Source: an uncultured Bacillales bacterium
Lineage (GTDB): Bacteria; Bacillota_I; Bacilli_A; RFN20; CAG-288
DNA length: 60,705 nucleotides
Assembly (NCBI GenBank): GCA_937896065.1
Contig: CALBLI010000031.1
Location: 1-60,705, forward strand
Direction: 5' to 3'
Shown here: positions 15,834-48,563 of the stretch, one piece after another
Numbering within the stretch: position 1 is the stretch's first letter
How the letters are laid out: every line of letters starts with the position of its first letter
Notes under the pieces: generated by a model
Databases searched by the model: none
The model's input: the letters and a program-made list of their open reading frames with translations, nothing else
What the model was told of the DNA's origin: nothing
Position numbers and translations under genes: made by a program

Positions 15834-15839
15834 GCAATA

Positions 15840-16152: not shown

Positions 16153-16343
16153 AACTTTCACCACTCGATTTATTGTAGCATAAAAAGAAATCGCTTTCAA
16201 TATTGAAAAGTATTTCTTTACTAAAATAATTTTAACATAATATCTTCGATACTGATTAGATATTTATTGAATATGTAATTATAATTTTTCCACTAAATAA
16301 TATTTATATTGCTTTTATTTTTTAGATATTTTATTTAAAATTA

Positions 16344-17963: not shown

Positions 17964-17972
17964 GGAGAAATT

Positions 17973-18803: not shown

Positions 18804-18825
18804 CAAAATAGATTAAAAAGCAAAT

Positions 18826-18858
18826 AAAAAATCTCACTTCAACTGAGTGAGATTTTTA
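18826..18858. terminator. Bidirectional rho-independent terminator (P-II-like gene / serS)
   Basis: Stem aaaatctcact / agtgagatttt with a 7-nt loop tcaactg. There is an A-run on one side and a T-run on the other. Confidence 0.7.
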
Positions 18859-18873
18859 TTTTAATATTTTATT

Positions 18874-20196: not shown

Positions 20197-20286
20197 ATTT
20201 GTACCTCGTAAATCAATTAATAATAATCTTTTTTTATATTTATAGCAAGTATCAATAAAATAATTGTTATAACGCCTTTAAATACA

Positions 20287-23762: not shown

Positions 23763-23776
23763 AAACAATCTCCTTT

Positions 23777-25969: not shown

Positions 25970-25971
25970 AT

Positions 25972-27051: not shown

Positions 27052-27269
27052 ATCAAGTAAGTTTTATCAAGATAGGTGACTTTGTCACCAGGGTATATCT
27101 TTCTTCCCCTCCTTCTTTCAAGTGACATGTTTACATAAACATCGTTTTCATTTAAAAACAACTTAGCTTCACCACCTGTAGAAATGAGGTTGAAATGTTT
27201 TAAAACCTGTCCTAATGTAATGTAACTATCATGTATTTTGAAGATGTTATTTTCACTATCACTATTCAT
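27033..27269 (-). CDS. yaaA: S4-domain RNA-binding protein YaaA
   Basis: 78 aa. ITLGQVLKHFNLISTGGEAKLFLNENDVYVN...RRGRKIYPGDKV fits the S4 fold. It overlaps the recF start, as yaaA does in the Bacillus yaaA-recF arrangement. Confidence 0.8.
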   Translation of the reverse strand: MNSDSENNIFKIHDSYITLGQVLKHFNLISTGGEAKLFLNENDVYVNMSLERRRGRKIYPGDKVTYLDKTYLICLSEK

Positions 27270-27485
27270 TTATTTATCCCTTAAATATTATACCATTTTT
27301 AAGATAAAAACGCTAGCTAGATGGCATAATTAAACAAAAAAATTAAAAAAATATATCTTTATTTTTTTAATGGTTAAATATATCATTAATAAACAAATAA
27401 TATCACTTAACAACTTTATTTTTATTTTAAAGTTTCTTACTTTTCTTTACATTTTTTAAACTATTTTAAAAGAGGATAAAAAAGA

Positions 27486-28106
27486 CTACTTTTTATGAAT
27501 AAATAATAAAAGAATACCTTCTTTTATACTTATTATATTATCGCTGTTTTTAACAACATTTGAGATGCCAAGTGGAGTATCTAAACTCATCTTACCCTCA
27601 TAATCATATTGATAACCAACTAATCTAACATCGCTTTCATAACTGAGTGAAAGTAATGAAAATTTAACTCCAACTGTTGAAAAAACATAACTAGAATTAT
27701 ATTCTTTTGATAATAAAATAACTTCTTCATCATCAGAAATTAAAATAGCTTTCTTTCGTTTCTTTAAAAGATAATAAAGAATCGAATAAGAAGAAAAAGT
27801 CATATCATTTCTATTTCCTAAGCAACCATAAAATGTGAAATCGTCATATCCTTCATTTAATAAATATTTAACAATATAGAAAGTATCAGTATCATCTTTT
27901 TGAGGGTTCAATTCGATAACTTTTTTAGCATATGAGAAGTCGCTGATCTTTAATGTATCAAAATCACCAACAAGCAGATCACAGGTAATTTTATTATCAT
28001 AAAAATGCATATATCCGTTATCAACAGCAACTTTATAATAATCATCATCAAAAATGATGTCATCTTCTTTAAAATAAGATGCAGCTACTATCAATACTTT
28101 CTTCAT
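27486..28106 (-). CDS. thiN: Thiamine pyrophosphokinase
   Basis: VAVDNG...LLVGDFDT...PQKDDTDTFYIVKYL...FYGCLGNRNDMTF matches the TPK catalytic domain. The C-terminal half has the thiamine-binding beta-domain pattern. Confidence 0.75.
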   Translation of the reverse strand: MKKVLIVAASYFKEDDIIFDDDYYKVAVDNGYMHFYDNKITCDLLVGDFDTLKISDFSYAKKVIELNPQKDDTDTFYIVKYLLNEGYDDFTFYGCLGNRNDMTFSSYSILYYLLKKRKKAILISDDEEVILLSKEYNSSYVFSTVGVKFSLLSLSYESDVRLVGYQYDYEGKMSLDTPLGISNVVKNSDNIISIKEGILLLFIHKK

Positions 28107-28681: not shown

Positions 28682-28718
28682 TAAAAATGACCTTCTATCT
28701 TCTTGATAAAAGGTCATT
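28682..28718 (-). terminator. Rho-independent terminator of the giant-lipoprotein operon
   Basis: 8-bp stem atgacctt (28687-28694) / aaggtcat (28710-28717). On the minus strand a T-run follows. It lies about 10 nt beyond the TAA of the 1988-aa gene. Confidence 0.7.
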
Positions 28719-28725: not shown

Positions 28726-31700
28726 TTATCCAACGACTATATTGAATACTTGTGTAATGTTATTTACTTTGACAGTCAGTTGACATTCACCTATTGCATT
28801 AAAGGTTAATTTAGTACCATTTACTAAGCAAACACTTGGTTTAGAAGAAGTGATTGATAATAGACCACTACTTATTGCATCAGCAATTGAAGGAACGTTG
28901 CTGCCTTGTAAGACGATAGCTAAATCCAAAGTCGTACCCTTAGTATGTTTAGCTTCAATTTCAGCTTTATTGGTAACAGTAAAGTCAGAAATAACTGGTG
29001 CAGCAGTTAATGTGATATATTTACCCACTCCATATCTATCATTGCCTTCAGAATCAAATCTAGTAAATGGATTGACAAGCATACCAGCTGTGTCGGTTTC
29101 TAAAGTAGCTGATCCATAAGTAAATTTAGAATTGGCTGGTAAACCAGATAATTGTTTACCGCAATATACATCATCAAAATGAGCAATCTCAGTGCCAGCG
29201 GCATTGACAAATTTTAAATTAACAAATAATTTTTGATATTCTTCATCTAGTTCTTCTTGATAAACAGCTCTAAATGATAAGTCTTGAGTTTCACTGAAAA
29301 CATATTCTTGATCTGAATAAATCTTTTGGGTTGAATCTCTTTCATTTTGCCAATATAAGAATTTATAATGTTTTGGTAAATATTCACTGTTGCCATCTGG
29401 CATTTGAACCTTACTTCCAACATAGACATCTTGTTTAGCATTTCCATTATCGTCAAAGTAAGAATAGATTTGTGATTCATTACCTTTATCTGAATTGTAA
29501 TAATTGAATGTTACACGATAAGAAATAGCTTTCCATTGAGCAGTTGCAATCAAATCAGTGATTTGGTTGAATGAATTGAAGTTGATTGATTCATCAGCTG
29601 CTAATTCACCATATAATTTTTCACTAGCATTGAAGACATGTTTATATTGCCATGAAACAAAGGTGAAACCTTTTCTAGTAGGTGCTGAAAGTGGTGTAAA
29701 TGGTTGACCATATGTACATGACATAATAGTAGCTACATCATCAGAAGCATCGCCTTCAACTAAGCCATCGACATCTTTACTTCTATTTAAATCAAAGGTG
29801 ATTGTAAATGTCTTAGGTTTACCATAAGCAGTTAAACGAATTTCATCACCTGAATCTAAATCTTGGTTACAAATATATGAATTTAAATCAACTATTGAAC
29901 CATTATCTAAGACAAATTGTGGAACACTAGCATCGAAAGCATAAGCATTTGCTGAAAATGGTAAATCACTTCCATCAACGTCATATTCCTTGCCTGGGAA
30001 GAATTGTTCATATGGATATGTAGCAAGAATTTCATTAAATTTTTGACCAAACTGAACTTCCTTACTGGTTTTAAAAGCACCATTAACATCATAATAACTT
30101 ACTTTATAAGTTTTAGCTACCCAGTTAGCTCTCAAATTGATATCAGTATCAAAAGTATAAGTAAAGTCTTCTCTATAAACTGTTCCATCATCATCTAACC
30201 AACCATTTAAGATATAGCCTTTCTTAGTATAGTTTTTAGGTAAAAACACCTTGTCATTAAAATTGACAGTGACAGCTTGAGCATTAGAACCATTATTTGG
30301 TGAATAATTGATAACATATGAATTTGCAAGCCATTTAGCTTTCAAAATCAAATTCTTATAAGTTGCACCATTAACTTCAATAGTTGGTGGTAAAGAATCA
30401 GTAGTTGATACTAAAGTTTCAGTCGTGATTCTAGTTGTACCATAGAACCAACCACCGAAAGTATAACCTTTCTTCACAGGTGTTGGTAAAGTACCATATG
30501 CAACTTTGAAATTGGTTTTTCTATCGGCAATATTATTTCCTTGTGAATCTTTAGTAGTAGTCACTCCATCTTCTTCTTTAAATGATAAATAAACTTCTTC
30601 ACCAGTCCATGATAAGACAGCAACAAATGATTGATGAATACCAAGTTTCTTAAATGACTTATTTACTAAGTTGTTTGTTTTAGCTAAATCCGCATCTTTA
30701 TTAGAGATAATGAAATTAGTTATAGCAGCACCAGTTAAATCAAATAAAGATACCGTATATGATGTACATCCAACTGGAGCCGTAAAATCAGGAATAGTAT
30801 AAGTTGCATCAAATCTAACTGTCTGTGTGATAGTAGATTCAGTTGAATCATTATTTAAAATATATGTGATATCATATTCAACTGTTTCCCACATTGCTGT
30901 TAATATGATGTTATTATTAGCACCAGTGAAGTTGACAACATTGTCTTTTGTAATTTTAGTATCACCATAATACCAACCTAAGAATTTATATGATGGTGCC
31001 TCAAGTTCAGGAGCAGCATCACTTCCAAAAGTATCAGAATAATAGACAGTCTTAGTTGATTTCCAAGCAAGAACTGTTGAGCTGTTTTTAATTGTTGGTT
31101 TATCAGGATCACTTGCTTCATTATTAGTTAAATAAGTGACAGTGATTGCCTGCTTGACCCAAACAGCTTTAAGTTCAACACGATCAGCAAATTTAACTCC
31201 ATTTACCTCACTTAAAATTTCAGAAATCTTTTTAGCAGTGGTTCCAGCATAACCGACAATTAAAACACCACTACCAGAAGCATCGTATCTTATATCTGGA
31301 TTAGAGCCATCAGCTTTAGGTGAAAGCTCAAGGACCTGATCTTTTAAATAAGTCCAACCTAAGAATTTGTAGCCATCTCTTGTAGGATCAGCTGGCAAAT
31401 AACAAGTACCTGTTACTTGTGTTGTACCAGTTTTACCTAAGGTATCATTATAGTTCCATGTTTGAGTTATATTATCATTACCATTTCCATATAAGAAAGA
31501 AACAGTAACTTTTTTAACATCAAATTTTAAAGTGATCTTTTGATCTTTAGGACTATTTAAAATGCTATCTTTAGTGAGTTGATTTCCAAATTCATCATAA
31601 TATCCGATGAAAGAATATAATGAACTATCATCTTCTTTATAATATTGACTAAAGTTTTCAATGGTTTTATCTGCAAAATCATATCCCCAAGTCACAGCTT

Positions 31701-34692
31701 GATCAATTTTTTTATCAGTTGCATCATATGAAGAAGTTGAAAGAGCAGTCAAATATCTTGCTTTAAATGTTCCATTGTTGATGTCTTGATAGGTTGTCGA
31801 AGTAGCCGTTTTAATTTCAGCTCTCAAAGTGACATTATAAGCATTACCTCTGATATCAGCTGTCAAGGTATGATTTCCATAAGCAAATAAATATTCATGA
31901 CCATTAATAGTCTTATCATTTTTAATATATAAATCACTTCTATCAACATTAGGATCAGTTGGAATTTGTTCGAGCCAACCTAAGAATGTGAAATAATTAT
32001 TGGCAGTAGCACTTTTAGTGTTTGTTGCTTTAAATGAGAAACCGTTATAAACATTTGTAGTTGTATCACCATCAGTCTTTTCATAATAGGCAGAATAGAA
32101 AGGATGATATGCTACATATGAAATAGGATCTAATTTAGTGCCATTTGTGACATTGAAATTGACAGTATATTTCTTTGGAACATATGTCAAAACAAAATTA
32201 GTATCTGCTATAACATTTTCAATATTTGATTCACCATCGATAATATGACCATCTTCATCACATGGGAACCACTTTTGATCAAAAGCAGCAAAATAATCAG
32301 CTGTAAAGAAATCGTCATTTCCAGTTGTGAATCTTAAGCCACCTTCAGCCATCATCTTTGTTCTATCGATAATAGGAGCAGAAGCAGCTGTGCCATCAGC
32401 TACAAGTCTAGTGGAACCGATTTGTTGAATTGTTCCAGTTGTTGAATTGATATAATAGAAATTGACACGATGCGAATTATTTTGATTGACAGTTAGTATT
32501 GCATCAATTGGATCTGGATCATAATAATGTTCAGGATCAGTTGCTTTAAAATAGGCAGTAGCTATTTGACTACCAACTGTTGATCTGACATTATTTACAA
32601 CAGCTGAAACAGTAGCAAGAGGTTTACCATCTTTCGTTGGAATAGCACTTGTTATAGGATTGATGGTGACTTCTTCACCAGAAACAAAACCTTGAACAAC
32701 ATCTGGGAAAACTCTATCCTTATCAATCACGATTCTTAATTTATTGATTGTCAAATAAGAATACATGTTTTCAATCTCTTCATGAGTAGAAGGAACAGTA
32801 AAGATAGCTTCAACTAAATAATTGCCTGGTTCAACAGGGAGAGTATTAAAATGAGTATCATCCACTTGATCAGCAGGTAATGTTACATCATATGTATATA
32901 AAGTTGATGTTGAAACATTACTCTTATCAGTTGTTGTTTTATAAATATAATAAACATATTTGACTGTGACATCAGCTGGAACATTGCTTACCTCAGGATA
33001 TGGTTTATAAGAAGCGTTGTAATCAAATGATGTGGCTGAAAAAACCAAATCATCATCATAACTACTTTCAACAATAGTTAAAAAAGCTGACATATCACTT
33101 GCATATTTAGTACCGACTTTATCAGTAAATTTGGCAATAACTTTATAAACACCTATTTCACTTGGTGCTTCATCAAGCTCACTTACAGTATAATCAGTTT
33201 TGCCTTCTTCTTTTGTTAATTTATAATAAGTATAATCAATATTGATATCGCTAGGTAAATTGCCTTCAACAGCTAAAGTTTTAGCCTTTCCATCGTAAAC
33301 AAAGTTTTTAGAAATAAAACTCATAACTGATGTATTATTTCTAATTACATGTCCATATATAGTAATATCACTTGCTACAGTACCAAGAGAAGTGACTCTT
33401 GAGCTTTCAGAATAATCAGGTCTTAAATACCAACCTTCAAAATAATAGCCATCATTAACAACAGGTGCAACAAGATTGTATCTATTAGAACTATCAGGCA
33501 CTTCGCCATAAGTATATTCAGTGATATTATCATTGCTAATAAAATTAGATAATGAATATGTTACTTTATATTTTCTTGGTGTGAAAGTAAAATAAATATC
33601 AACATTTTGAGTTACATTGAGCAACTTATTTTTATTTTCATCAGTAAGCGAAACAATATAACCTTCAGCAATAGTCAATTTCTGAGCACGACTGATAAGT
33701 TCATCAGCAGTAAGTGGACAATTATCACCACCAGAAACCGTAATAGAATCTAATATTTGAGTCTGATTGCGATAGAAAGAAATCTTAACACCATTGGTGA
33801 TTCTAACTCTCATATTGACAGTTATTGATGATGGATCTTCATAATTTTTATCTTGAGATGTAAAATAAATTTTAACAATATTGATACCTTCTTCTGTTCT
33901 CTCATTATTAGAATAGAAAGCTTTGAGTCTGGAATCAAGACCAGCAACTATTTCAAGACGGTGAGTTACAACAGGTGAATAATCATAATTGTAATATGTT
34001 TCACCACCTTCAATTGAAGTTGAGTCAGCATTGAATCTTAAATTGGCTTTAATAGCAGCCATATCAAAAGTTTTCTTTTTGATGGTGATTGTCGCTTGAG
34101 CTGTATAATGTGATACACCGGTATTTTTATTATATACTCTAGCAGTTACTGTATATATACCAGCATCAACTTTACCATTATTTTCATATTTTACAGCAAA
34201 ACCATCAGGAATAACGCTCTCTTCATTATCAATATAAATAGAGTGCTCATTTCCATCATATTCAAAAGTTTTTGCATTGAAAGTGATTAGTGAATACCAA
34301 TTGATGGTTCCATCATTTGGAGCTTTAATAATGAGTTTAGCAGTTTTATCTTTGTAAAGAGTTCCATCACTACCTTTAAATTTAGCAGTAACAACATTTG
34401 TACCAATGGCAGTTCTAGTATTGTTTTCATAAGTAACTGTGACTCCAGCTGGGAGGGAACTTTCGTCACATTTTAATACTTTTTCTTGTCCATCATAAAT
34501 GTATGTTGCATCATTAAAAGCAACTCCGACATCTTTATAAACAGATTCAGGTATATTTTCATTTTTCTTATCTTCATTGCTTGTTGCATCTTGTGACTTA
34601 TTAGCAGTTGGTTCACAACTTGTAACAAGTGGCATAATCATAGAAGTTAAGACGGCTAAAGAGAATAATTTAGATTTTTTGTTGTTTCTCAT
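28726..34692 (-). CDS. Giant surface lipoprotein, 1988 aa: lipobox, MBG-like modules, Flg_new-type repeats, C-terminal Big_2-like Ig domain
   Basis: GGAGGA (34706-34701) lies 8 nt upstream of the ATG at 34692 (MRNNKKSKLFSLAVLTSMIMPLVTSC), so the track start at 34710 is rejected. MBG-like YIYDGQEKVL...GVTVTYENN and FEYDGNEHSI. Repeat signatures YYFEGWY, FTFLGWL, YKFLGWT, YKFLGWY, YTFGGWF, YILNGWL. The C-terminus ITSSKPSVCLVNGTKLTFNAIGECQLTVKVNN is Big_2-like. Confidence 0.9.
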   Translation of the reverse strand: MRNNKKSKLFSLAVLTSMIMPLVTSCEPTANKSQDATSNEDKKNENIPESVYKDVGVAFNDATYIYDGQEKVLKCDESSLPAGVTVTYENNTRTAIGTNVVTAKFKGSDGTLYKDKTAKLIIKAPNDGTINWYSLITFNAKTFEYDGNEHSIYIDNEESVIPDGFAVKYENNGKVDAGIYTVTARVYNKNTGVSHYTAQATITIKKKTFDMAAIKANLRFNADSTSIEGGETYYNYDYSPVVTHRLEIVAGLDSRLKAFYSNNERTEEGINIVKIYFTSQDKNYEDPSSITVNMRVRITNGVKISFYRNQTQILDSITVSGGDNCPLTADELISRAQKLTIAEGYIVSLTDENKNKLLNVTQNVDIYFTFTPRKYKVTYSLSNFISNDNITEYTYGEVPDSSNRYNLVAPVVNDGYYFEGWYLRPDYSESSRVTSLGTVASDITIYGHVIRNNTSVMSFISKNFVYDGKAKTLAVEGNLPSDINIDYTYYKLTKEEGKTDYTVSELDEAPSEIGVYKVIAKFTDKVGTKYASDMSAFLTIVESSYDDDLVFSATSFDYNASYKPYPEVSNVPADVTVKYVYYIYKTTTDKSNVSTSTLYTYDVTLPADQVDDTHFNTLPVEPGNYLVEAIFTVPSTHEEIENMYSYLTINKLRIVIDKDRVFPDVVQGFVSGEEVTINPITSAIPTKDGKPLATVSAVVNNVRSTVGSQIATAYFKATDPEHYYDPDPIDAILTVNQNNSHRVNFYYINSTTGTIQQIGSTRLVADGTAASAPIIDRTKMMAEGGLRFTTGNDDFFTADYFAAFDQKWFPCDEDGHIIDGESNIENVIADTNFVLTYVPKKYTVNFNVTNGTKLDPISYVAYHPFYSAYYEKTDGDTTTNVYNGFSFKATNTKSATANNYFTFLGWLEQIPTDPNVDRSDLYIKNDKTINGHEYLFAYGNHTLTADIRGNAYNVTLRAEIKTATSTTYQDINNGTFKARYLTALSTSSYDATDKKIDQAVTWGYDFADKTIENFSQYYKEDDSSLYSFIGYYDEFGNQLTKDSILNSPKDQKITLKFDVKKVTVSFLYGNGNDNITQTWNYNDTLGKTGTTQVTGTCYLPADPTRDGYKFLGWTYLKDQVLELSPKADGSNPDIRYDASGSGVLIVGYAGTTAKKISEILSEVNGVKFADRVELKAVWVKQAITVTYLTNNEASDPDKPTIKNSSTVLAWKSTKTVYYSDTFGSDAAPELEAPSYKFLGWYYGDTKITKDNVVNFTGANNNIILTAMWETVEYDITYILNNDSTESTITQTVRFDATYTIPDFTAPVGCTSYTVSLFDLTGAAITNFIISNKDADLAKTNNLVNKSFKKLGIHQSFVAVLSWTGEEVYLSFKEEDGVTTTKDSQGNNIADRKTNFKVAYGTLPTPVKKGYTFGGWFYGTTRITTETLVSTTDSLPPTIEVNGATYKNLILKAKWLANSYVINYSPNNGSNAQAVTVNFNDKVFLPKNYTKKGYILNGWLDDDGTVYREDFTYTFDTDINLRANWVAKTYKVSYYDVNGAFKTSKEVQFGQKFNEILATYPYEQFFPGKEYDVDGSDLPFSANAYAFDASVPQFVLDNGSIVDLNSYICNQDLDSGDEIRLTAYGKPKTFTITFDLNRSKDVDGLVEGDASDDVATIMSCTYGQPFTPLSAPTRKGFTFVSWQYKHVFNASEKLYGELAADESINFNSFNQITDLIATAQWKAISYRVTFNYYNSDKGNESQIYSYFDDNGNAKQDVYVGSKVQMPDGNSEYLPKHYKFLYWQNERDSTQKIYSDQEYVFSETQDLSFRAVYQEELDEEYQKLFVNLKFVNAAGTEIAHFDDVYCGKQLSGLPANSKFTYGSATLETDTAGMLVNPFTRFDSEGNDRYGVGKYITLTAAPVISDFTVTNKAEIEAKHTKGTTLDLAIVLQGSNVPSIADAISSGLLSITSSKPSVCLVNGTKLTFNAIGECQLTVKVNNITQVFNIVVG

Positions 34693-34723
34693 TATTAATT
34701 TCCTCCACAAATCATTTTATTTA

Positions 34724-37700
34724 TTAAGCATTTGGTCCAGTATTACCAGTAAGACAGTTAATAAATCCTTTCCTATCTTCCTTAAGTTCAGTATCTGAAC
34801 AGATATTCTTGAAATCATTATCACCATTTGTCTTCAATCTAAAACGAATTATCATCTCGTTTTGAATAGTTGCAGCACCATCTACCATATTAATTGGGAA
34901 TGAAGAATTTAAGAAGCCAAAATAGTTAGAATCTAATGAAATTTGATTATAATCACTAGTTGTACCATTAATTGTTATATCAAATGTTTCCACTCCGCTC
35001 AAGGTAGCTTTAGTTTTATATTTAATAAAAGTATGTATCGCTATTTTCTTCAAAGCAGAACTGATATTAACAGATGTCAAATTTTGATTATAAGCAAAAC
35101 AACCTTCACCAATATTTTCAACACTTGAAGAAAGTGAAACAGATTTAAGACCTGTTCTTGAGAAAGCATATTTACCGATAGTCTTTAAAGCTGATGAATG
35201 AGTAAATAATTCCAACTTACCAACACAATAGAAAGCATAATCTTTGACTTCAATAAGAGAAGTACCATCAAGGTTACGGATACTATTTCCATTAGCTTTC
35301 AAATCAGCAATAGGAGTTGTTGATCTATCACCGTTCTCAAATTTAGCAAGTGACATTGGTGTTGAGTATTTGCTTCCAAAAGTGATATGAGCCCAGTTTT
35401 CAATTGTGCTTTCATATTCAACTGAGGTTAGTTGATTTTGCCTGATAAAGTAACCACTTTTTGCAAGAAGTTCATCAGTTGCATATCTTTCAACGCCGAT
35501 ATAGTTTCCACCAGTAGCTGGACAATCTCTATCATCTGTAATCTTAAAGCAATCTTCTTCAAATTCATTAATATTAGCTGGAACAATTACTTTATTTAAG
35601 TAAGATAGGTTAATAAATGTGTACTTTTTGATGATGGATACTTTTGGCAATTGTAAAGTGGTACCTACACTATCAATCCAGGACATTTGAAGTGTTTGAA
35701 GATTATTCTTGTAGAAGCAGTTTTGATAGACTAAATACATTGGATTACTTGAAACATCGTTAAATTTAATATTATTCCATGAAGCAACTGTTCCAAGATA
35801 ATTGACCTTAGTAAGTAGTGGACAATCAATGTTTAATGCAGCTACGTTAGAACCATTCATAATAGCAAAGGCACCTTTTTCAAATTCAGTGATTGTATCA
35901 GGAATAGTGATAGCTTTAGCAAAGTCCTTTACTTTTTCAAGACCATTTTGATTGTTATATAAGAAGCTAGCACCAACTTTATTTATCTTGTAAATAGATT
36001 CAGAAGAATCACCCATCATAACATAGCTAGGTAACCAAATATTTCCATTTGTCTTATATAAGGCATTAGTGCTTGTAGCAATATTGTTACCATTTAAACC
36101 AGTAAGTGTAGCTGTTTTAGTTTGAGCATCATCTGCAAATTCAAAGAATTGAGTATTAATCTTATTTTTAAGATAAACAAGACCAACAGAGAAAACAGAA
36201 CCATGTTCAGAATAGCTGTATGCGTCTTCTTCAGAATCAAGGTTTGTATAAGCGGCAGCAAAGGCTTTTGATGTATAACGACCATTTGCATAATCTGCAA
36301 AACAATAAATATCTTTTTGACTTCCTTGTTCTTTAGCTTTTTGTGATTTGATGACGAGTGCAAATTGAGTAGGATCAAGTCCTAACTTTTGCAATAACTT
36401 GATTTGCAAACCAGCATCATTGTCACTTCCTAATAAAACTTTATAGAATGGCGTACCATTTGTGATAGCAAAATCATATACACCAGCTGAATCTTGAATA
36501 TATTCACTTGTGATGTTATTGATATTGAACTTAATCTTATATGATTTGTCAACAAAGACCGCTCTGAATCTGATTGAATATGTATCATCAGCAAGAGTTG
36601 TCGTACCTTTATCATCTATTGAGATGTAATTGAAGTTATCAAGAGTGACAGAACCTGAATTAATAATAGTTTCAGTTTCGACTTCTTCAAAGGTTTGACC
36701 AGTTTTCTTTAATTTGATAAGTCTCCAACCAGCAAAAGTTTTACCTTCACTAGCTTCGATTGTAGGTAATGTGAATTTTTGTGAATAACTTGCTTCAGCT
36801 GTACTGAATAGTTCAGTATTATTGTAATAAGAAATTTCAACTTTCTTTGGAACATATGTGATTGAAGCTGAAACATTTGAAATACTGCTATCATTTGCTA
36901 AAATTTGATCAGCAAAGTCTTCTAAATCAACAGTTTTAGCAACTTTTCTTGCAGTTACAAGTTTATTACCATCATTAAAATCATAGATACTATCATCTAC
37001 TTCCATAGTAACAGTCCATTTACCAGTATTGTAGCCATTCTTTTCTTTTATTTCAGGTAATGATATTTCAACCAATTTCTTACTTGAACTATCAAAATAT
37101 TTAAATTTCTTATTTCCAGTTGTTTGATCAACATAAATCTGATATCCGAATTTGTTAGTTTTATAGAATTCAACAACTTCAGCATCAACAATTTCCTCAG
37201 GTTTGTTAGTTAAAACACCAACTCTTTGTCCATCACTATTTAAACCTGAGAAGGTGAAATTGACAGGACTCTTTTCATATTCAGCCAAAATATATACTTT
37301 AGTACCAACTGGTATTGTTTGAAGAACATAATTACTATCAACTTTCTTATAAATGCCATAATTATTGACAACTGTATCATTATTGACAGTATATTCAACA
37401 TAACCAGTTCCTGAACTGATATAGTATTTTTCACCCTTTTCATCAGTTCTGACCCATTTCTTAAAACTATAACCATCTAAGACAGGATCATTTGGTAATA
37501 ACAATTTAGCACCATATGTTTGATTCATATTGGTAGTTGAATTTGTTATTTGTGTTTCTTCAATGGTAAGATCAGTGAATGTTTTAGTAATTTCAGCACC
37601 TGTATTAGGATCAATAACTTTTCTGGTGCCAGTTTGATTTGTCTTACTTACTTTAGTTTTTGACTTAGTAGTAATAACTGAATCAATAACTTTAGCTCTG

Positions 37701-40700
37701 TATTCAGCAGTTAAAGACATTGGAGTTGACCAACTGATGTCTTTAGCTTCATCTGGATTGTAATCACCTGGTTTAGCTTTATAACCCAATTCAAAGGCAG
37801 ATTTGCCATTAGGAATAGTAAATAAAGCCGTCGTACCAAATGTTAAAGAAGTTAAATCATATCCAGCTCTATTGGGTAAGAAATTCTTCTGGGTAGTATT
37901 ATCAATACCTAAAGCAATTAATCTACCAGCATTTACGCTATCTTCAACATAGATATTAGAATCCCAAGTAGAAATTCCATTATCGTTATATGTCTTAATA
38001 AATGGAGAAGCAGCTTTCATGATTCTTGTAGTTTCATTTCCAAGCCCATCTTGAACAATGTATTGGATATTGATTTCATATTCATTATCAACGAAGACAG
38101 CATATAGTGCAAATAAGCCTTCACCTGTAGTATCAAAGTCTTTTTGCTCAACAGGTGTAACTGATGTGACAAAATCTTCACCATTTTGATTATAATAATA
38201 GCTTTTCTCAGATTTTAAAGTGGTAGCATTTCTAGTCTTATTGTAATAATAAAGTTGAGCTTTATTAACACCAGCAGTAGCTTTCACTTGATCATATTTA
38301 GATTTGGTTACCCACCCAACAAATGTTTTACCATTTGAAGCAGGAGTGGCAGTTGGCAATGTGTATGAACCACCTATATTATTTTTATAAATGCCAGTTA
38401 AATCAGTTAATTCAGCACCACCGAAGTTGTAGAAGACGACATTGACTGATTTAGCTTTAACCTTTAATTTAACAGTGATGTTTTTTGAAAATTCATAAAC
38501 AGAAGCACCAGAATAATTATTTCCTTCATATTCCCAAGCTTCAAATTCATAGCCTCTATATTTAGCAGTATTAGTTAATACAGGTGTTGGATAAGTAACA
38601 GCTTTTTTATATTCTACAGTTACTACACCACTATTATTAGTGCCAACACTTGGTCTATTATCTTGACCATTTAATAATTTACCTTCCTCATCAACAAATG
38701 TGATTGTATATGAAAGACTAAGATATTCAATAGCTATAGTGATATCGCCATTTTTATCTAGAAGTGAATTTAAAAGTTTAGGTGTAAGAATACTGGCTTG
38801 GGTCAAATTTGTTATTTGTTCCAAATTTACAGAAGTAACTGATAAATCATCATTTGGAACTACTTTTGTTAAAGCAGTTAAAGTATAGCCATCTCTATTT
38901 AATAAAGCAGCATCAGGGAAATTAATCAAACTATCGGTAGAAGTTGTAATTGTCGTATCAGCTGCTATTTTATTAGCAACAAAATTAGGATAAAGTCTAT
39001 TTGTTCCTACATTATCTTTCTCAGCTTTAATGAAAACAAATTTGATATTGTAGTTCTTAGCTTTAAGTCTTGCACTTATCTGTTGGTTATTAGTGTAATC
39101 AAAAATATCTTTTTCTAAATCAACTTTTTGTCCATTTGTATAATAGAAGCCTTCAAAATCATAGCCCATTGCATTTGCAGCAGCATTAACTGTATTTAAA
39201 AGATTATTCAAAGTTACGTTAGTTTTATCAGTAGTATCAATATTTGTTGCAGTATTAAGGAGCGAATTATATTTAACTACAAAGGTAGATGCACTCTCAA
39301 CCCAAATATAATCTGCTGCTTCTTTCTTCTTATATGTTACAGTAACACGATATTCTTGATATTCCCATTCAGCATATACAGCGTGATCAATAGATTGATA
39401 GACAGTTAAGGTTTCATTAACTTGAGTTTTAACACCATCTTTCATGATATACCAGTACTTAAAAACTCTTCCTTCTCTTGTAGGGTTGCTTTCAGGAAGA
39501 ATATATTTTTCACCAAAGGTATTAGTGATTTGAGCGTAGACATTTCCAGTACCAGCTCCACCATCACCAACTTCATCTTCACTAGTATAGAAGAAGACTG
39601 TAGGTGTCTTAGTTTCAAACTTAGCATATAAAACAATATCACGATAGTCTTTAGGGGCTAAAATATTTTTATAATATGTGCCATTACTAATAAGGCTAGA
39701 ATTGAAATTAGGATCTAAATACCAACCCAAGAATCTTGAATCTTGTAAGGTAGGGACTTTTAATTTATGTTCTTCATCATTATCATCAACAACTGTATAA
39801 GTAGTCTTATTCATGCTATTATCAGCTAATTCAGAAATAACATATTTAATATTATATGTATGTGGTTTTCTTACAACTACAACACGTATTTCATCACCAC
39901 TTACTGCTAGTAAATTGTTGGTTGCATCAGTACCTGTTTGAGTATCTGCATTATATGAACCATATAAATAATAATATGTATCATAGCCATAATATGCACT
40001 CTCATCTCCCCTAGTTGATGGAAGAGGTGATCTTTGTCCTTTTTCAACCGCATAACTAGCAATTGGGTTACCATTTAAATTGTTAGCGTCATAGAACAAA
40101 ACAGCAGTTGATTCATCGGTGATAACATATTGAATTTCACGATAATTTGGAACTTCAATATTTGGATCAGTGACTTTAAAATAAACTCTTGCCGTTTTTG
40201 TACCAGCAGTTGATGATTTCTCACCACTATAATAATCTACTTCAACGCCTTTAGGGAAACTATTTGAAGAAGCTATATCAAAATAAACTGAATATTCTTT
40301 ACCAGCTTGATATTTGAATGAAAAAGCTGGAGTTTGATTAGAGTGAGAATTACCATTATAGTCTTTCCACAATGTATTTTTATTTGCAATACCTTCGCTA
40401 ATAGCTGTATCAATTGCATCTTCGACATTCTTCTTATTGATAACTAATGTCGTTTTCATATCTACCAATTCTTCATAATTGGTTGATTCACTATTTAAAG
40501 TTGAGAATGTGACACTAACTTCATAAGTACCAGCATTTGTTGGTGCATCATTTGAAGTGCTACCATAAACACCATTTTCAACCTTCACATAAGATATGTG
40601 TGGTATAAATGGGAAATCATTATTTTGTTGATTAGTTCTGAGTGTCAAAACTCTGCCACTGATAGTAGAAACCTTAATATTCACTTCTTTTGGTAAACCA

Positions 40701-42538
40701 TCATATGTATAGGTAAATACATTTTTCTCTAAATCATATGCTGTACTTGCATCATCAGAAGTGGTAAACACTGCCTGAACATTTTCACCTTTAGTGTTTT
40801 GAATAGGAACAACACCAGCACTTCCGTCAGCAATAACAATACTATTATCAGCAGTCTTTTTACCTAAATTCTTTAATTTAGCTTTAACAATTGTAAAAAC
40901 TGCTTCTTGTGGTGCTTGTGCCATTTCTTTTTTGGTAGCATCAGTATATACATTTAAAGTTACATGATAAGTTCCAACATTTTTAGGTGATGAAGATTCA
41001 GTGATGCCATTAGCAGATTTATAAATGAGTTCATAAACATACTTTGGATCTTTATTATTGATTGTAATATCTTGTTGTTTGCCGTTATAAACAACTTGTT
41101 GATCAGCAATTGATGCTGATGCACCTATTTGTCTTGAATTGACAGTTAATACTAAATCACCGACAAGAGTTTTACTGGCAATAACACCATCAGTGCCAAC
41201 TGTTCCTGAATGATATTTAGCAGCATCAGCTGGTTTTGATGCATAATGTGGATCTGTTGTCACATCATAATTAGTCGTATAACTCCAACCAGTAAATTCA
41301 TAACCATCATTCATATTTGGAGTTGGTAAATTCAATTGTTCATCAAAAGTATAACGGATAGGACGTGAGCTATCGTCTTTAGAATTTGTGCCTTGGTAAA
41401 CAATTGTGTATTGTCTAGGAGTATAAGTGACGCTCAAGTTAATAGCTGTGTCTTGTTTTACAACCTCAGTAACTAATGATTCATCATATCCATTTTCAGT
41501 TGTATATGCACCCTTAGGAGCAGGGATATAAGTACCATCAGCTTTTTTAACGGCTAAAACAGGCAAATCATTTGGATCTAAAGTGCCACCAACAGGAAGA
41601 GAAATCTCATACCCAGTATAGTCTTTATCACTTGGATTACAAACAGTTCCATCTGGTCTTACAACAGGTACATTAGTTCCGTTGTAATAAGCAAAAACAT
41701 TAACTTTAACAACCTCAGCATTAGCCAAAATAGTAAGATTAGCAGTTAATGGTGCTGGATCTTTATAATTCAAATTCGTCGATTTAAAAGAAGCTGTAAC
41801 TTCCTGAGTACCAATAGTTGTTCTACCATTGTTTGTATAACTAACGACAACCTGGATATCTTCAGTAAGTCCTTCAACTGTAAGCTCATGCTTCTTGCCA
41901 TCATAGGCGTATTGTTTTGATTTGAAAACAACATTCGACATATCATAATCAGCTTTAGTGATATTCATGATTGTTGTTTTGCTATAAACTTCAACCTTAC
42001 TCACTTTATTTCGCATATAAACAGTTACTGGATATTGACCAACAGATATCGCTTTGTTGTTTGTATATCTTGAAACTTCATAGCCTTCGGGAATAGTATT
42101 TGGATCAACAGCAAGTGAATGTTCTTGTCCATCATAAACGAAATTAGTTTCATTGCCTTGGAAACGTAAATTATTCCAAATCTCATTTGCACCAGTAGAA
42201 TCAACAATACGCAATGTAGCTTCTTTCTTTTGGTAATTTGTTCCTTTATTGTCGCTAAAATAGGCAGTTATTGTATAGTCACCAGTATTAACTTGTGCAT
42301 TATTGTCTGAATATGTAACAGAAACCCCTTCTGGTAAATTTCCTGTAATTTCAAGCCCATGGACTTTGCCATCGTACAAAACAGTTTTATCTAAAAACTC
42401 AACATCTACAAACTTGGCTTCAGAGACTTCTTTTTGGCTATTCTCAGTGTTTGAAGAAGCACTTGTTGGTGTACAGCCAGTCACAGCTAACATTGAAGCA
42501 AGTACCGTAAGACTAAAGAGTTTATTTTTCTTTGACAT
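34724..42538 (-). CDS. Giant surface lipoprotein, 2604 aa: lipobox, MBG-like modules, Flg_new-type repeats, C-terminal BspA-type leucine-rich repeats
   Basis: GGGAGGA (42553-42547) lies 8 nt upstream of the ATG at 42538 (MSKKNKLFSLTVLASMLAVTGC), and only 2 nt from the track start at 42544. MBG-like VLYDGKVHGL, FVYDGQEHSL, YAYDGKKHEL. Repeat signatures YEFTGWS, SRFLGWY, KTFVGWV, KTFAGWR. The last ~470 aa carry LRR_5-like units (IPDTITEFEKGAFA, VKDYAFYCVGKLE, LKTIGKYAFSRTGLKSVSLSSSVENIGEGCFAYNQNLTSVNISSALKKIAIHTF). Confidence 0.9.
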   Translation of the reverse strand: MSKKNKLFSLTVLASMLAVTGCTPTSASSNTENSQKEVSEAKFVDVEFLDKTVLYDGKVHGLEITGNLPEGVSVTYSDNNAQVNTGDYTITAYFSDNKGTNYQKKEATLRIVDSTGANEIWNNLRFQGNETNFVYDGQEHSLAVDPNTIPEGYEVSRYTNNKAISVGQYPVTVYMRNKVSKVEVYSKTTIMNITKADYDMSNVVFKSKQYAYDGKKHELTVEGLTEDIQVVVSYTNNGRTTIGTQEVTASFKSTNLNYKDPAPLTANLTILANAEVVKVNVFAYYNGTNVPVVRPDGTVCNPSDKDYTGYEISLPVGGTLDPNDLPVLAVKKADGTYIPAPKGAYTTENGYDESLVTEVVKQDTAINLSVTYTPRQYTIVYQGTNSKDDSSRPIRYTFDEQLNLPTPNMNDGYEFTGWSYTTNYDVTTDPHYASKPADAAKYHSGTVGTDGVIASKTLVGDLVLTVNSRQIGASASIADQQVVYNGKQQDITINNKDPKYVYELIYKSANGITESSSPKNVGTYHVTLNVYTDATKKEMAQAPQEAVFTIVKAKLKNLGKKTADNSIVIADGSAGVVPIQNTKGENVQAVFTTSDDASTAYDLEKNVFTYTYDGLPKEVNIKVSTISGRVLTLRTNQQNNDFPFIPHISYVKVENGVYGSTSNDAPTNAGTYEVSVTFSTLNSESTNYEELVDMKTTLVINKKNVEDAIDTAISEGIANKNTLWKDYNGNSHSNQTPAFSFKYQAGKEYSVYFDIASSNSFPKGVEVDYYSGEKSSTAGTKTARVYFKVTDPNIEVPNYREIQYVITDESTAVLFYDANNLNGNPIASYAVEKGQRSPLPSTRGDESAYYGYDTYYYLYGSYNADTQTGTDATNNLLAVSGDEIRVVVVRKPHTYNIKYVISELADNSMNKTTYTVVDDNDEEHKLKVPTLQDSRFLGWYLDPNFNSSLISNGTYYKNILAPKDYRDIVLYAKFETKTPTVFFYTSEDEVGDGGAGTGNVYAQITNTFGEKYILPESNPTREGRVFKYWYIMKDGVKTQVNETLTVYQSIDHAVYAEWEYQEYRVTVTYKKKEAADYIWVESASTFVVKYNSLLNTATNIDTTDKTNVTLNNLLNTVNAAANAMGYDFEGFYYTNGQKVDLEKDIFDYTNNQQISARLKAKNYNIKFVFIKAEKDNVGTNRLYPNFVANKIAADTTITTSTDSLINFPDAALLNRDGYTLTALTKVVPNDDLSVTSVNLEQITNLTQASILTPKLLNSLLDKNGDITIAIEYLSLSYTITFVDEEGKLLNGQDNRPSVGTNNSGVVTVEYKKAVTYPTPVLTNTAKYRGYEFEAWEYEGNNYSGASVYEFSKNITVKLKVKAKSVNVVFYNFGGAELTDLTGIYKNNIGGSYTLPTATPASNGKTFVGWVTKSKYDQVKATAGVNKAQLYYYNKTRNATTLKSEKSYYYNQNGEDFVTSVTPVEQKDFDTTGEGLFALYAVFVDNEYEINIQYIVQDGLGNETTRIMKAASPFIKTYNDNGISTWDSNIYVEDSVNAGRLIALGIDNTTQKNFLPNRAGYDLTSLTFGTTALFTIPNGKSAFELGYKAKPGDYNPDEAKDISWSTPMSLTAEYRAKVIDSVITTKSKTKVSKTNQTGTRKVIDPNTGAEITKTFTDLTIEETQITNSTTNMNQTYGAKLLLPNDPVLDGYSFKKWVRTDEKGEKYYISSGTGYVEYTVNNDTVVNNYGIYKKVDSNYVLQTIPVGTKVYILAEYEKSPVNFTFSGLNSDGQRVGVLTNKPEEIVDAEVVEFYKTNKFGYQIYVDQTTGNKKFKYFDSSSKKLVEISLPEIKEKNGYNTGKWTVTMEVDDSIYDFNDGNKLVTARKVAKTVDLEDFADQILANDSSISNVSASITYVPKKVEISYYNNTELFSTAEASYSQKFTLPTIEASEGKTFAGWRLIKLKKTGQTFEEVETETIINSGSVTLDNFNYISIDDKGTTTLADDTYSIRFRAVFVDKSYKIKFNINNITSEYIQDSAGVYDFAITNGTPFYKVLLGSDNDAGLQIKLLQKLGLDPTQFALVIKSQKAKEQGSQKDIYCFADYANGRYTSKAFAAAYTNLDSEEDAYSYSEHGSVFSVGLVYLKNKINTQFFEFADDAQTKTATLTGLNGNNIATSTNALYKTNGNIWLPSYVMMGDSSESIYKINKVGASFLYNNQNGLEKVKDFAKAITIPDTITEFEKGAFAIMNGSNVAALNIDCPLLTKVNYLGTVASWNNIKFNDVSSNPMYLVYQNCFYKNNLQTLQMSWIDSVGTTLQLPKVSIIKKYTFINLSYLNKVIVPANINEFEEDCFKITDDRDCPATGGNYIGVERYATDELLAKSGYFIRQNQLTSVEYESTIENWAHITFGSKYSTPMSLAKFENGDRSTTPIADLKANGNSIRNLDGTSLIEVKDYAFYCVGKLELFTHSSALKTIGKYAFSRTGLKSVSLSSSVENIGEGCFAYNQNLTSVNISSALKKIAIHTFIKYKTKATLSGVETFDITINGTTSDYNQISLDSNYFGFLNSSFPINMVDGAATIQNEMIIRFRLKTNGDNDFKNICSDTELKEDRKGFINCLTGNTGPNA

Positions 42539-42581
42539 AGGCATAATCCTCCCTTATAAAAACTAGTAAGGTTATAAAATC

Positions 42582-42610
42582 ATTATATTTTAATACTATA
42601 TATATGAAAA
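42582..42610 (-). promoter_or_regulatory. Putative promoter of the two-gene giant-lipoprotein operon
   Basis: On the minus strand: TTTTCA (42610-42605), 17-nt spacer tatatatagtattaaaa, TATAAT (42587-42582), about 44 nt upstream of the ATG. The spacer starts with the same tatatat tract as the promoter at 12494-12522. Confidence 0.45.
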
Positions 42611-42906
42611 ATCAAGAAAACTAATAGAACAATAGCCCTCCAAATCGCTGATTTTAGCTAATTTTTAAGTTGTAAATTTTACTATTTTTCAGTTTTTTTA
42701 ATGTGCCAGGTTTTTTATTGCTATCAATGCTTGAATATTTGATATTGTAACAAATAAATTTATTTATTTTTTTTGTTTAAATTAAAAATGATATAATAAA
42801 AAGCAATTTTTAGTATTTATAAAAAATGTTAAATATTTATTTAATTTATATTTTAAAAAATTGAATAACTCACAAAATATTACTAAAATATATCGTTATT
42901 AAAAAT

Positions 42907-43824: not shown

Positions 43825-45705
43825 ATGAAAACCAAAAATTCTAAAAAATCTTTAACCTTATTTATCCCCGCTGTTACTATGGCTTTATCTTCTTGCAATA
43901 AAAATAGTACACCTGCAAGTTTATCAACTACGCCCTCATCAGTTCAGTCATCTACAACCTCTTATTCATCTTCTAAACAATCAATATGGTATGAAGTGAA
44001 AATACTTAGCAAGCCTGGTAAAACTGATGTTGTCGACTTGCGTGATGTATATAAAGTTGGAGAGGAAATGAATTTTTCCATCAACAATATGACTGGTCAT
44101 AATTTGATTGTGAAAATAAATAATATAATCATCGAGCCTGATGTGAATTTAAGATATAAATATATAGTAGCTGAAAATGATCAGGTACTTGTTATTACCA
44201 TTACCGAAGACATCAAAAAAATAGTTCCAGTGTTCAATTATACTCCTGCTGACTTAGCAAAATATGTGAGTGTTAGATTTTTAGATGAAAGCAAAGAATC
44301 ATTCTCACCTGGAGATTCTTTATATTTGCGTTTTTCAAAGAGCGAAGGCTATTCATTTAAAACTATCAAGCTTAATGGTGAAGATATCACTCAGCAAATA
44401 GTAAATGATATTTTTTACTATCTAATTCCAAGTGATGTCACCCAACTAGTATTTGATATCGTAGTCAGTTATGATCAAAGTACTATCAAACTAAATATAG
44501 AAAGTAATGATGCTAGTAGTTTTATAATAACTAATTATAAAAATTATTATCAAGCTAATGAACAAGCTAATATCAAAATTACCCCTAAAGATTACTATAA
44601 AATTGAAAATATTAAATTGAATGGAACAATCATCAATCCTAGTGATGATTCGTCAACAAGCGAAACTAAAATTTACTCATTTAAAATTCCATCAGCCTCA
44701 CCTGAAATCACGCTTACAATCTCATCTATTCCAAAGCAACCTATTATAAGAGGTGATATTTTCTCTTATAATGAAAGCAGTAAAATTACATCATCACTTG
44801 ATAAAATTCCGGGAATGAAAGTTCAAATACTTGATATGACTGACGGAAGTTATCAAACAACAACCGACGTTATTTTTGATAGTGGTGCTAGTAGTTATAT
44901 TGTTCCAATCAATAATGATAACGGAGCTTATTATACTAACCATAACTATACCATAAAACTTTTAATACCTGATGGTTCCTCTTTAAAAGAAGTTCAGGCT
45001 AATAATGGAGTTAAGGTTGGCCTTGATAATTCAAAATATATTCAAAATATAATAATACCAAGCACTACTGATTTAACTTTCACTGGTGAATGTGATTTAC
45101 CAACTCTTCCTATCACATTAAAAAAAGGTGAATCCTCAAAAATTGTTGATAATGGTAACAATGTAGTCATAGCTGCAACTAAAAAGAATGTATCAATCTC
45201 ATACAAACTGCAATACACTGGGAAATTAGTTGATGACAATGGTAATGTCATCACTGAATTTAATACTTTATTATCTAGTAGTGAAATCGATTTTGATTAT
45301 CAATTCTCGTTAAGTGATTACAAATCAAACACCAACAATTATTATTTTAGAATTTATCATAATAGCACAGATAAACAGTATTATGTAACACACAATCTTC
45401 AAAATGGTTATACAAATATAAGACCTTTAACTAGCCAATATATTAAAGCTTTATGTAATGGAAAATTGATTATAACTTTTAACAGAACAATTAAAGATGG
45501 TTCATATTTTTATAATTGTACTTTAAAGATTGAAGATAAAGAAAGTGAAACAAATAACTTGCAAGGATTTACTAGATCAGTCACTTCAAGCCCTGCAACT
45601 TTCATCGGTTCTAAAATGGAAGCTAGCAATCTTTTCCAAGATGATATTAACAAAGGCGATTTTATAATTTCAAGTTATCACATATCATGCAGTGATAATA
45701 TATAG
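43825..45705 (+). CDS. Surface lipoprotein, ~626 aa, with tandem beta-sandwich-like modules
   Basis: GGGGAGGTGA lies just upstream of the ATG at 43825. MKTKNSKKSLTLFIPAVTMALSSC has a lipobox, followed by a Ser/Thr-rich linker. Three ~85-aa modules each end in ..VLVITITE / ..LVFDIVVS / ..EITLTISS. The track start at 43789 lacks an RBS. Confidence 0.8.
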   Translation: MKTKNSKKSLTLFIPAVTMALSSCNKNSTPASLSTTPSSVQSSTTSYSSSKQSIWYEVKILSKPGKTDVVDLRDVYKVGEEMNFSINNMTGHNLIVKINNIIIEPDVNLRYKYIVAENDQVLVITITEDIKKIVPVFNYTPADLAKYVSVRFLDESKESFSPGDSLYLRFSKSEGYSFKTIKLNGEDITQQIVNDIFYYLIPSDVTQLVFDIVVSYDQSTIKLNIESNDASSFIITNYKNYYQANEQANIKITPKDYYKIENIKLNGTIINPSDDSSTSETKIYSFKIPSASPEITLTISSIPKQPIIRGDIFSYNESSKITSSLDKIPGMKVQILDMTDGSYQTTTDVIFDSGASSYIVPINNDNGAYYTNHNYTIKLLIPDGSSLKEVQANNGVKVGLDNSKYIQNIIIPSTTDLTFTGECDLPTLPITLKKGESSKIVDNGNNVVIAATKKNVSISYKLQYTGKLVDDNGNVITEFNTLLSSSEIDFDYQFSLSDYKSNTNNYYFRIYHNSTDKQYYVTHNLQNGYTNIRPLTSQYIKALCNGKLIITFNRTIKDGSYFYNCTLKIEDKESETNNLQGFTRSVTSSPATFIGSKMEASNLFQDDINKGDFIISSYHISCSDNI

Positions 45706-48487: not shown

Positions 48488-48563
48488 TGGTGGATCATAA
48501 GAGACTCGAACTCTTGGCCCACTGATTAAGAGTCAGTTGCTCTACCAACTGAGCTAATGATCC
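48488..48563 (-). tRNA. tRNA-Lys (anticodon CUU), CCA encoded
   Basis: The minus-strand sequence GGATCATTAGCTCAGTTGGTAGAGCAACTGACTCTTAATCAGTGGGCCAAGAGTTCGAGTCTCTTATGATCCACCA folds by hand into a 76-nt cloverleaf. Acceptor stem GGATCAT/ATGATCC, D stem GCTC/GAGC, anticodon stem ACTGA/TCAGT with loop CTCTTAA, T stem AAGAG/CTCTT with loop TTCGAGT. Confidence 0.93.

Follow-up and report, generated by a model that had tools for sequence, protein, structure and literature searches.

Paired giant lipoprotein genes with LRR_5 and Big_2-like distal modules at a conserved locus of an uncultured Bacillales bacterium

Two adjacent lipoprotein genes and their expression signals

The 60,705-nucleotide contig CALBLI010000031.1 from an uncultured Bacillales bacterium, referred to below as the window, is a metagenomic contig with a GC content of ~30% (ENA ERZ27300197, k119_268909). 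Positions 28726-42544 of the window are occupied by two long minus-strand open reading frames (ORFs), 34724..42544 and 28726..34710, which contain the genes designated here A and B. An earlier note on this DNA had described them as two giant lipoprotein genes encoding 2604 and 1988 amino acids (aa), and the coordinates and peptides that it quoted were all correct. Start codons were picked by Shine-Dalgarno spacing (Table 1), and the public gene calls for the source contig gave identical lengths for both proteins. No in-frame TGA was found in A or B, indicating that the standard bacterial code (table 11) reads both genes through. The region of the ribosome-binding site (RBS) of A retained a GG(A/G)GG motif in all orthologous loci.

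Table 1. Positions of the genes, domains, and expression signals discussed in the text (window coordinates)
Feature	Coordinates	Strand	Description
Promoter candidate, sigma-70 type	42587..42615	minus	-35 TTGATT (42615-42610), 17-nt spacer, -10 TAAAAT (42592-42587)
RBS of A, GGAGGA	42547..42552	minus	8 nt 5' of the ATG at 42538
Gene A	34724..42538	minus	Predicted lipoprotein of 2604 aa; intact; ATG at 42538
A, signal peptide and lipobox	42473..42538	minus	MSKKNKLFSLTVLASMLAVTG followed by C; VTGC at residues 19-22, Cys = 22; 92% conserved across orthologs
A, residues 44-270	41729..42409	minus	Three membrane-proximal MBG-type domains (repeat HMM); best-conserved part of A (64%)
A, residues 475-807	40118..41116	minus	Second three MBG-type domains (repeat HMM, Pfam scans)
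A, residues 2040-2604	34727..36421	minus	Distal module: beta-rich pre-domain (2040-2165), LRR solenoid, ~95-aa variable tail
A, residues ~2166/2205-2510	~35009-36043	minus	BspA-type LRR solenoid, ~305-345 aa (Pfam, AlphaFold2 model)
A-B spacer	34693..34723	minus	31 nt; carries the GGAGGA of B (34706-34701), 8 nt 5' of the ATG of B
Gene B	28726..34692	minus	Predicted lipoprotein of 1988 aa; paralog of A; intact; ATG at 34692
B, signal peptide and lipobox	34615..34692	minus	MRNNKKSKLFSLAVLTSMIMPLVTS followed by C; VTSC at residues 23-26, Cys = 26
B, residues ~1823-1897	29002..29226	minus	Penultimate beta-sandwich (AlphaFold2 model residues 104-178, pLDDT ~80-86)
B, residues 1900-1988	28729..28995	minus	C-terminal Ig-like domain, Big_2 fold (model pLDDT >90, ortholog HMM match)
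Intrinsic terminator 3' of B	28683..28716	minus	Stem 12 bp, loop 5 nt, TTTTTAT; hairpin 28716-28688, T-run 28687-28683
Giant lipoprotein C	212-12451	minus	4079 aa; lipobox ISSC at residues 21-24; N-terminal layout as in A and B (three MBG-type, Flg_new, MBG-type)
626-aa predicted lipoprotein	43825-45705	plus	MKTKNSKKSLTLFIPAVTMALSS followed by C; beyond the GHMP kinase gene divergent from A

The N-termini of A and B consist of a lysine-rich n-region, a hydrophobic core, and a lipobox that fits the pattern used in the search ([LVI][ASTVI][GAS]C). These signal peptides and lipoboxes were 82-92% conserved in the orthologs, with the lipobox kept in all of them. Judging from the signal sequences, both proteins would be exported, lipidated at the lipobox cysteine, and held by their N-terminus in the cytoplasmic membrane. 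Neither lgt nor lsp was present within the 60-kb window. LPXTG sorting signals were found neither in A, which ends with ...CLTGNTGPNA, nor in B, which ends with ...FNIVVG, ruling out membership in the LPXTG (MSCRAMM-type) adhesins, and no wall-binding domain was detected in the two proteins. In one ortholog (locus L005, 3638-3660), the lysine codons of the signal peptide form an unbroken run of nine A residues (ATGTCAAAAAAAAATAAA), and the public gene call starts at an ATG located downstream of this run.

The earlier note had stated that B has its own GGAGGA and that no terminator separates the two genes. Both statements were confirmed, since the 31-nt spacer is unstructured (folding z 0.08) and the A-B gap spans 19-39 nt, always with GGAGG, in the window and in four divergent loci. 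Scanning the minus strand for T-runs between 28600 and 42700 revealed a sole canonical hairpin with a T-run, at 28716-28683, which had likewise been noticed as the only such structure and lies 3' of B. The calculated free energy was -15.3 for the hairpin alone and -23.7 kcal/mol in its 61-nt context (z -9.9). A generic consensus scan returned no minus-strand terminator in this stretch and overlooked the 28716-28683 hairpin too. A hairpin followed by a T-run was also present 3' of B in four other loci, with a different sequence each time.

Alignment of the regions upstream of A in the window and in five loci revealed that CTTGATTTT is invariant, with TAnAnT located 17 nt downstream, in spite of diverged flanks. 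This was the sole conserved non-coding promoter-like element. The promoter that had been proposed at 42582-42610 overlaps this conserved element, but the best-supported hexamers are located 5 nt further upstream (Table 1). The candidate matched 9 of 12 positions in a consensus scan, and the scan as a whole performed at chance level (90 matches versus 89.6 expected), a first point against our interpretation. Thus, the argument for a promoter is based on conservation rather than on consensus.

Gene order was the same in every recovered contig, namely a divergent GHMP kinase gene, A, B, a Sel1-repeat gene, the thiamin pyrophosphokinase (TPK) gene, S4_2, recF, and gyrB. These contigs represent seven distinct loci (the window, L027, L003/L004, L005, L006/L007, L008/L009, and L028); L028 contains a truncated A, since its contig begins inside the gene that precedes B. 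Together, the sequence features indicate that A and B probably form a two-gene operon expressed as one bicistronic transcript. Transcription from the conserved sigma-70-type promoter upstream of A would generate an mRNA of ~13.9 kb ending at the hairpin 3' of B, and B would be translated from its own GGAGGA in the spacer.

B might instead be transcribed independently, from a promoter located within the last few hundred bases of A, and the A:B ratio would then be separately regulated. Internal promoters are common in long operons, and the RBS that precedes B is strong. The AT-rich sequence of A contains many near-consensus hexamer pairs, which also speaks in favour of this alternative. However, the gap is short and devoid of a terminator in all compared loci, the only promoter-like element conserved outside coding sequence is located upstream of A, and promoter-like matches inside genes were no commoner than in shuffled sequence. 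An internal promoter would also supplement read-through from A and not substitute for it. We therefore consider independent transcription of B rather unlikely and retain the two-gene operon.

Domain architecture and distal modules of A and B

Domains were mapped with a hidden Markov model (HMM) that was iterated on A and B, on the orthologs of both, and on giant protein C (Table 1). A and B have a common layout, which comprises the lipobox, three MBG-type domains, a linker domain, a Flg_new repeat, three additional MBG-type domains, a stalk rich in Flg_new repeats, and a C-terminal module. The MBG-type domains are ~70 aa in length. No Pfam MBG match was obtained with the whole A and B proteins or with their first 374-378 aa. 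Scanning of single repeats from A, B, and their orthologs led to matches with MBG_3 (PF18887) for 15 of 29 repeats (best E value, 2.4e-7) and with MBG (PF17883) for 5 of 29, and a homolog search retrieved, for the N-terminal region, named MBG domain-containing proteins with E values down to 1e-86. The Flg_new repeats (Listeria-Bacteroides repeat or InlB B-repeat; PF09479) were detected by Pfam with scores of 62.4 bits in A and 59.4 bits in B for a cut-off of 27, in five stretches in the case of B. An NCBIfam scan of both proteins added solely a TIGR02543 match in B (48.6 bits). The iterated HMM recognized eight Flg_new copies in A and nine in B, which are diverged and interspersed with beta-rich segments of no assigned family.

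The first 800 aa of A and B align collinearly (26% identity; E value, 3e-38), which identifies the two proteins, at the sequence level, as paralogs. No meaningful tandem repeat, long direct repeat, or inverted repeat was found in the DNA between 28600 and 42950, indicating that the internal repeats of the proteins are old. Phase variation or a cassette mechanism was rejected on the basis of the same result. The ~1,800-2,100 residues of small beta-rich domains that follow the anchor are expected to form an extended stalk, with a length of very roughly 70-110 nm at full stretch.

The earlier note had proposed that A ends in ~470 aa of BspA-like leucine-rich repeats (LRRs). Pfam LRR_5 (PF13306) matched whole A with a score of 68.5 bits (cut-off, 27.7; E value, 6e-19) and the last 566 aa of A in three stretches with a score of 73 bits (E value, 2.7e-20). 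An AlphaFold2 model of residues 2040-2604, obtained with a predicted local distance difference test (pLDDT) value of 73.5 and a predicted template modelling (pTM) score of 0.80, contained a solenoid of about a dozen turns broken by two low-confidence or disordered insertions. Comparison of this model to known structures with Foldseek identified 4gt6, 4fs7, 4cp6, and 4h09 with a probability of 1.00 and E values of 2e-9 to 4e-5. The best match, 4gt6 (E value, 2e-9), is a cell-surface protein from Faecalibacterium prausnitzii, and 4cp6 is pneumococcal PcpA. Template modelling (TM) scores of the model against LRR_5 structures were low (0.27-0.47) because of the insertions and of the flanking domains. 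Profile matches and the structure model together show that A ends in a BspA-type LRR_5 solenoid. Thus, the type of LRR had been correctly recognized, as established both by HMM and by fold, but its length had been overestimated, since the solenoid spans ~305-345 aa.

A profile of the entire distal module of A (570 positions) retrieved ~300,000 representative proteins at E values of 1e-3 or lower. Among the best 150 of these matches, only the orthologs were matched from end to end in a single stretch, and in the other proteins the canonical LRR_5 segment was hit many times over. The last ~95 aa of A (2511-2604), which follow the solenoid, were 21% conserved.

For B, the proposal was a single Big_2-like immunoglobulin (Ig) domain at the C-terminal end. 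No Pfam Big_2 (PF02368) match was obtained with B or with fragments comprising its last 134 or 269 aa, although E values of up to 5-10 were allowed. One aligned ortholog of B matched Big-like (E value, 8.4e-8) and Big_2 (E value, 3.5e-6), and precomputed matches to both families exist for P0036 and for the L008 ortholog of B. The AlphaFold2 model of this end (residues 1720-1988) revealed a last domain that superposes on the C-terminal domain of lambda gpV (2l04; TMt, 0.67; root-mean-square deviation [rmsd], 2.6), on a Big_2-CBM56 protein (7quz; rmsd, 2.2), and on LigB (2mog; TMt, 0.63), the rmsd values for the three structures being in the range of 2.2-3.7. For the end of B, the fold matches spanning several domains were led by the S-layer proteins SbsC, Sap, and EA1, with TM-scores of 0.11-0.37. 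The model and the HMM matches of the ortholog show that B ends in a beta-sandwich followed by an Ig domain of the Big_2 fold. The proposal was thus upheld by the fold and by the ortholog but not by hmmscan of the window copy of B.

Conservation, selection, and genomic context of the pair

Full-length homologs were found only in metagenome assemblies, with 36-98% identity for A and 42-61% for B. Among species-representative genomes, a single full-length ortholog was found, in a metagenome-assembled genome (MAG) labelled 'Bacilli bacterium' (L009). Partial relatives were present in an Anaeroplasmataceae MAG and in many Clostridia MAGs of gut, rumen, and rabbit origin. The Anaeroplasmataceae protein (L011, 9884-16207, plus strand, 2107 aa) combines N-terminal MBG-like repeats with a C-terminal BspA LRR_5 region and has a transmembrane anchor instead of a lipobox. 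In the same contig, a terminator is followed by a further open frame of >2,900 aa that leaves the locus (16564-25335, plus strand), indicating that giant surface genes cluster in the Anaeroplasmataceae lineage too. Combinations of MBG_3, Flg_new, and LRR_5 recur in the metagenomic homologs of A and B. The architecture is therefore already common in metagenomes, and the A-B pair adds members to a known adhesin-like class.

In comparison to the four divergent loci, identity was 40-49% for A, 46-56% for B, 51-59% for RecF, 45-59% for TPK, and 63-68% for the GHMP kinase. These values indicate that the A-B pair evolves just slightly faster than its ordinary neighbours. Within the proteins, conservation was 58-64% for the first three MBG-type domains, 38-56% for the stalk, and 41% both for the LRR region and for the Big_2-like domain. 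This decrease from the anchor-proximal to the distal end is as expected for an exposed tip. The type of tip was constant in all orthologs (LRR on A, Ig-like on B), indicating that tips are not swapped.

A near-identical strain, L027, was compared to the window's own locus (L001) over locus coordinates 10001-27815. The ratio of nonsynonymous to synonymous substitution rates (dN/dS) was 0.08 for A and 0.07 for B, indicating that both genes are under purifying selection. For this strain pair, diversifying selection on the tips was rejected in view of these ratios and of the identical LRR tip. The distribution of the differences was uneven. Most 500-nt bins over the stalk of A (locus 11001-16500) contained ~4-7% differing bases, and two bins (10501-11000 and 13001-13500) were nearly free of single-nucleotide polymorphisms (SNPs). 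In the stalk of B, divergence was ~2% from 18001 and ~4-7% over 19001-21000. The LRR tip of A contained 0-2 SNPs per bin, the distal third of B contained 3 SNPs, and the Sel1, TPK, recF, and gyrB genes contained none. This mosaic indicates either recombination tracts or a strain-chimeric metagenome assembly.

The window encodes four lipoproteins, three of them giant: A, B, a 4079-aa paralog referred to as C, and a 626-aa protein (Table 1). C contains at least nine Flg_new-like repeats, and its last ~1,900 aa have no recognized domain. We rejected the notion that C is an LRR-rich protein, since it has one weak LRR_5-like stretch (residues ~2100-2191). P0220 was rejected as a relative of C, being of equal length but unrelated. 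No LPXTG signal or wall-binding domain was seen in C. These features fit a low-GC Bacilli or Mollicutes-like organism with an array of lipoproteins displayed on its membrane.

An alternative role for A and B is that of a structural surface coat, i.e., a protective fibrillar layer of core envelope components that would replace the S-layer or the glycocalyx in an organism whose wall is thin or missing. Such a role would agree with the single-copy status of the pair and its fixed core-genome position by recF-gyrB-gyrA in every relative found, with a divergence barely exceeding that of housekeeping neighbours, and with strong purifying selection. It would also agree with S-layer proteins leading the multi-domain fold matches of the end of B and with the accumulation of giant lipoproteins lacking LPXTG and wall-binding domains in a 60-kb window. 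However, LRR_5 solenoids typically bind ligands and do not form lattices, and the TM-scores obtained for the S-layer proteins are low, reflecting generic strings of Ig-like domains. We consider a coat function to be unlikely and favour surface fibrils with binding tips.

Other features of the window concern the neighbourhood of the pair. Searches against Pfam, NCBIfam, and PDB sequences returned no match for the 626-aa lipoprotein. This protein was kept at the same position, with 34-48% identity, in L003, L005, L006, and L008; size-matched gene calls occupy this position in L004, L007, and L027, and the corresponding side is off the contig in L028. The S4_2 (yaaA-like), recF, gyrB, and gyrA genes are located downstream of the pair (21132-27300, minus strand), and neither dnaA nor dnaN is present in the window. 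Near 42.5-46 kb, the genes change orientation and the GC skew is reversed, its sign changing near 45 kb. A replication origin in the A/GHMP kinase intergenic region was rejected: there was no cluster of DnaA boxes, and none was present in 42539-42906. Matches to the DnaA box with one mismatch numbered 20 window-wide for 22.9 expected. The XFP phosphoketolase (45799-48210, plus strand) displayed 87-92% identity to its counterparts in the four divergent loci, far above the other genes that were compared. A tRNA-Lys(CTT) gene (48488-48563, minus strand) is located between the XFP gene and groES/groEL.

Relation to known surface proteins and possible function

A resembles BspA-type proteins (BspA of Tannerella forsythia, PcpA, and the proteins of structures 4gt6, 4fs7, and 4h09), which are surface proteins with LRR_5 repeats matched by the tip of A in both HMM and fold comparisons. 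In contrast to these proteins, the LRRs of A are C-terminal, following ~2,100 aa of MBG-type and Flg_new domains in a 2604-aa lipoprotein, and its solenoid is irregular, with two long insertions. BspA combines LRRs of the LRR_5 type with Big_2 domains, whereas LRR and Big_2 are here split over two paralogous proteins. The mode of attachment also differs, since the lipobox of A contrasts with the type IX secretion C-terminal domain of BspA and with the choline-binding repeats of PcpA.

Internalin B (InlB) from Listeria monocytogenes associates Flg_new (InlB B-repeat) and LRRs in one surface protein, as found for A. The LRRs of InlB belong to the 22-residue internalin type and are accompanied by a cap and an inter-repeat Ig domain, and attachment of the protein involves GW modules. 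The LRRs are N-terminal in InlB, whereas A displays the reverse order, the LRR_5 type, and a lipid anchor. Fold matches between InlB and the tip of A were not significant (7nms, E value of 0.39; 2wqu, E value of 2.2). Membership of A in the internalins was ruled out on the basis of the C-terminal location of the LRRs, of their type, and of these fold comparisons.

The terminal domain of B superposes on the Big_2 domains of the Lig proteins from Leptospira (LigA/LigB; 8gyr and 2mog), which are lipoproteins. Intimin (1f00), considered with invasin, was a multi-domain match to the end of B with an rmsd of 13. In contrast to the Big_2 arrays of Lig proteins and intimin, there is just one Big_2-like domain at the end of B, and its sequence has diverged beyond recognition by the Pfam model.

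A low-GC Mollicutes-type organism displaying BspA-like proteins has been described: 'Candidatus Mycoplasma girerdii' has 26 BspA-like genes, and its TpLRR/BspA-like surface proteins have been discussed as mediators of cell-cell interactions (PMC9239101). Our comparison to this family is based on its description. In contrast to this multi-copy expansion, the A-B pair is single-copy, syntenic, and under purifying selection. Gut Clostridia and other Bacillota have giant surface proteins, presumed to function in adhesion, that combine Listeria-Bacteroides repeats with LRRs in 10,000-30,000 aa (bioRxiv 10.1101/2023.11.21.568195). A and B use the same domain vocabulary but comprise just 2-2.6 thousand aa, have a lipobox anchor, and are encoded by a conserved gene pair whose products differ in their tips.

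We consider it likely that A and B are fibrillar surface proteins that are anchored by lipids, expressed together, and equipped with LRR_5 and Big_2-fold tips, and that they are probably adhesive. Co-transcription, lipidation, and the extended shape of the two proteins are inferred, and ligand binding in an adhesin role is the most likely function in view of the known roles of the domain families. The LRR_5 solenoid of A would provide a protein-binding surface. Attachment could involve host, food-particle, or other microbial surfaces, and the two tips would afford two binding specificities from one expression unit.

Several additional observations weigh against this interpretation. Large segments of the stalks contain no recognized domain (e.g., A 1156-1277, 1435-1657, 1725-1899, and 1960-2165 and B 736-1060), so that a fully extended rod is an assumption. 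Both tip models are of moderate confidence (mean pLDDT, 73-75), having been obtained from alignments of 5-6 sequences. The low dN/dS ratios and the identical LRR tip in the strain pair are unlike the diversifying pattern frequently found in tips that interact with a host. The distance to which the proteins would project would depend on whether the cell has a wall.

Capture of nutrients or polymers, in which dietary glycans or particles would be tethered to the cell by the LRR tip and by the arrays of MBG-type, Flg_new, and Ig-like domains, is another function that might be envisaged for A and B. The relatives with named records come from gut or rumen MAGs, namely the RUG, HRGM, MGBC, and Lapin bins, and the fold matches of the last domain of B include Big_2 domains linked to a carbohydrate-binding module or to a glycoside hydrolase (7quz and 4hu8). 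The Listeria-Bacteroides repeats of the giant gut Clostridia proteins have also been discussed in relation to the binding of surface glycoproteins (bioRxiv 10.1101/2023.11.21.568195). However, no carbohydrate-binding module, glycoside hydrolase, dockerin, or transporter was detected in A, in B, or in the adjoining genes, and we consider nutrient capture to be highly unlikely in comparison to adhesion.

A bolder proposal, which we regard as quite improbable, is that A and B, instead of acting as two independent fibrils, pair via their collinear, best-conserved proximal halves (three MBG-type, Flg_new, three MBG-type) to form one two-headed heteromeric fibre. Gut Bacilli with a thin wall or none would thus have a surface organelle encoded in their core genome. 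Formation of such a fibre would explain that the genes are kept together, in the same order, and under purifying selection in all of the loci found.

The A-B pair reveals no new mechanism and no new protein fold. It provides a clean and conserved example of MBG-type, Flg_new, and LRR_5 domains assembled on a lipid anchor. If A and B are indeed lipid-anchored adhesive fibrils, 13.8 kb of the chromosome of this lineage, at a conserved position, would serve to make two long surface fibrils that differ in their heads, and the tips of A and B would be well-defined starting points for studying which surfaces these organisms bind.

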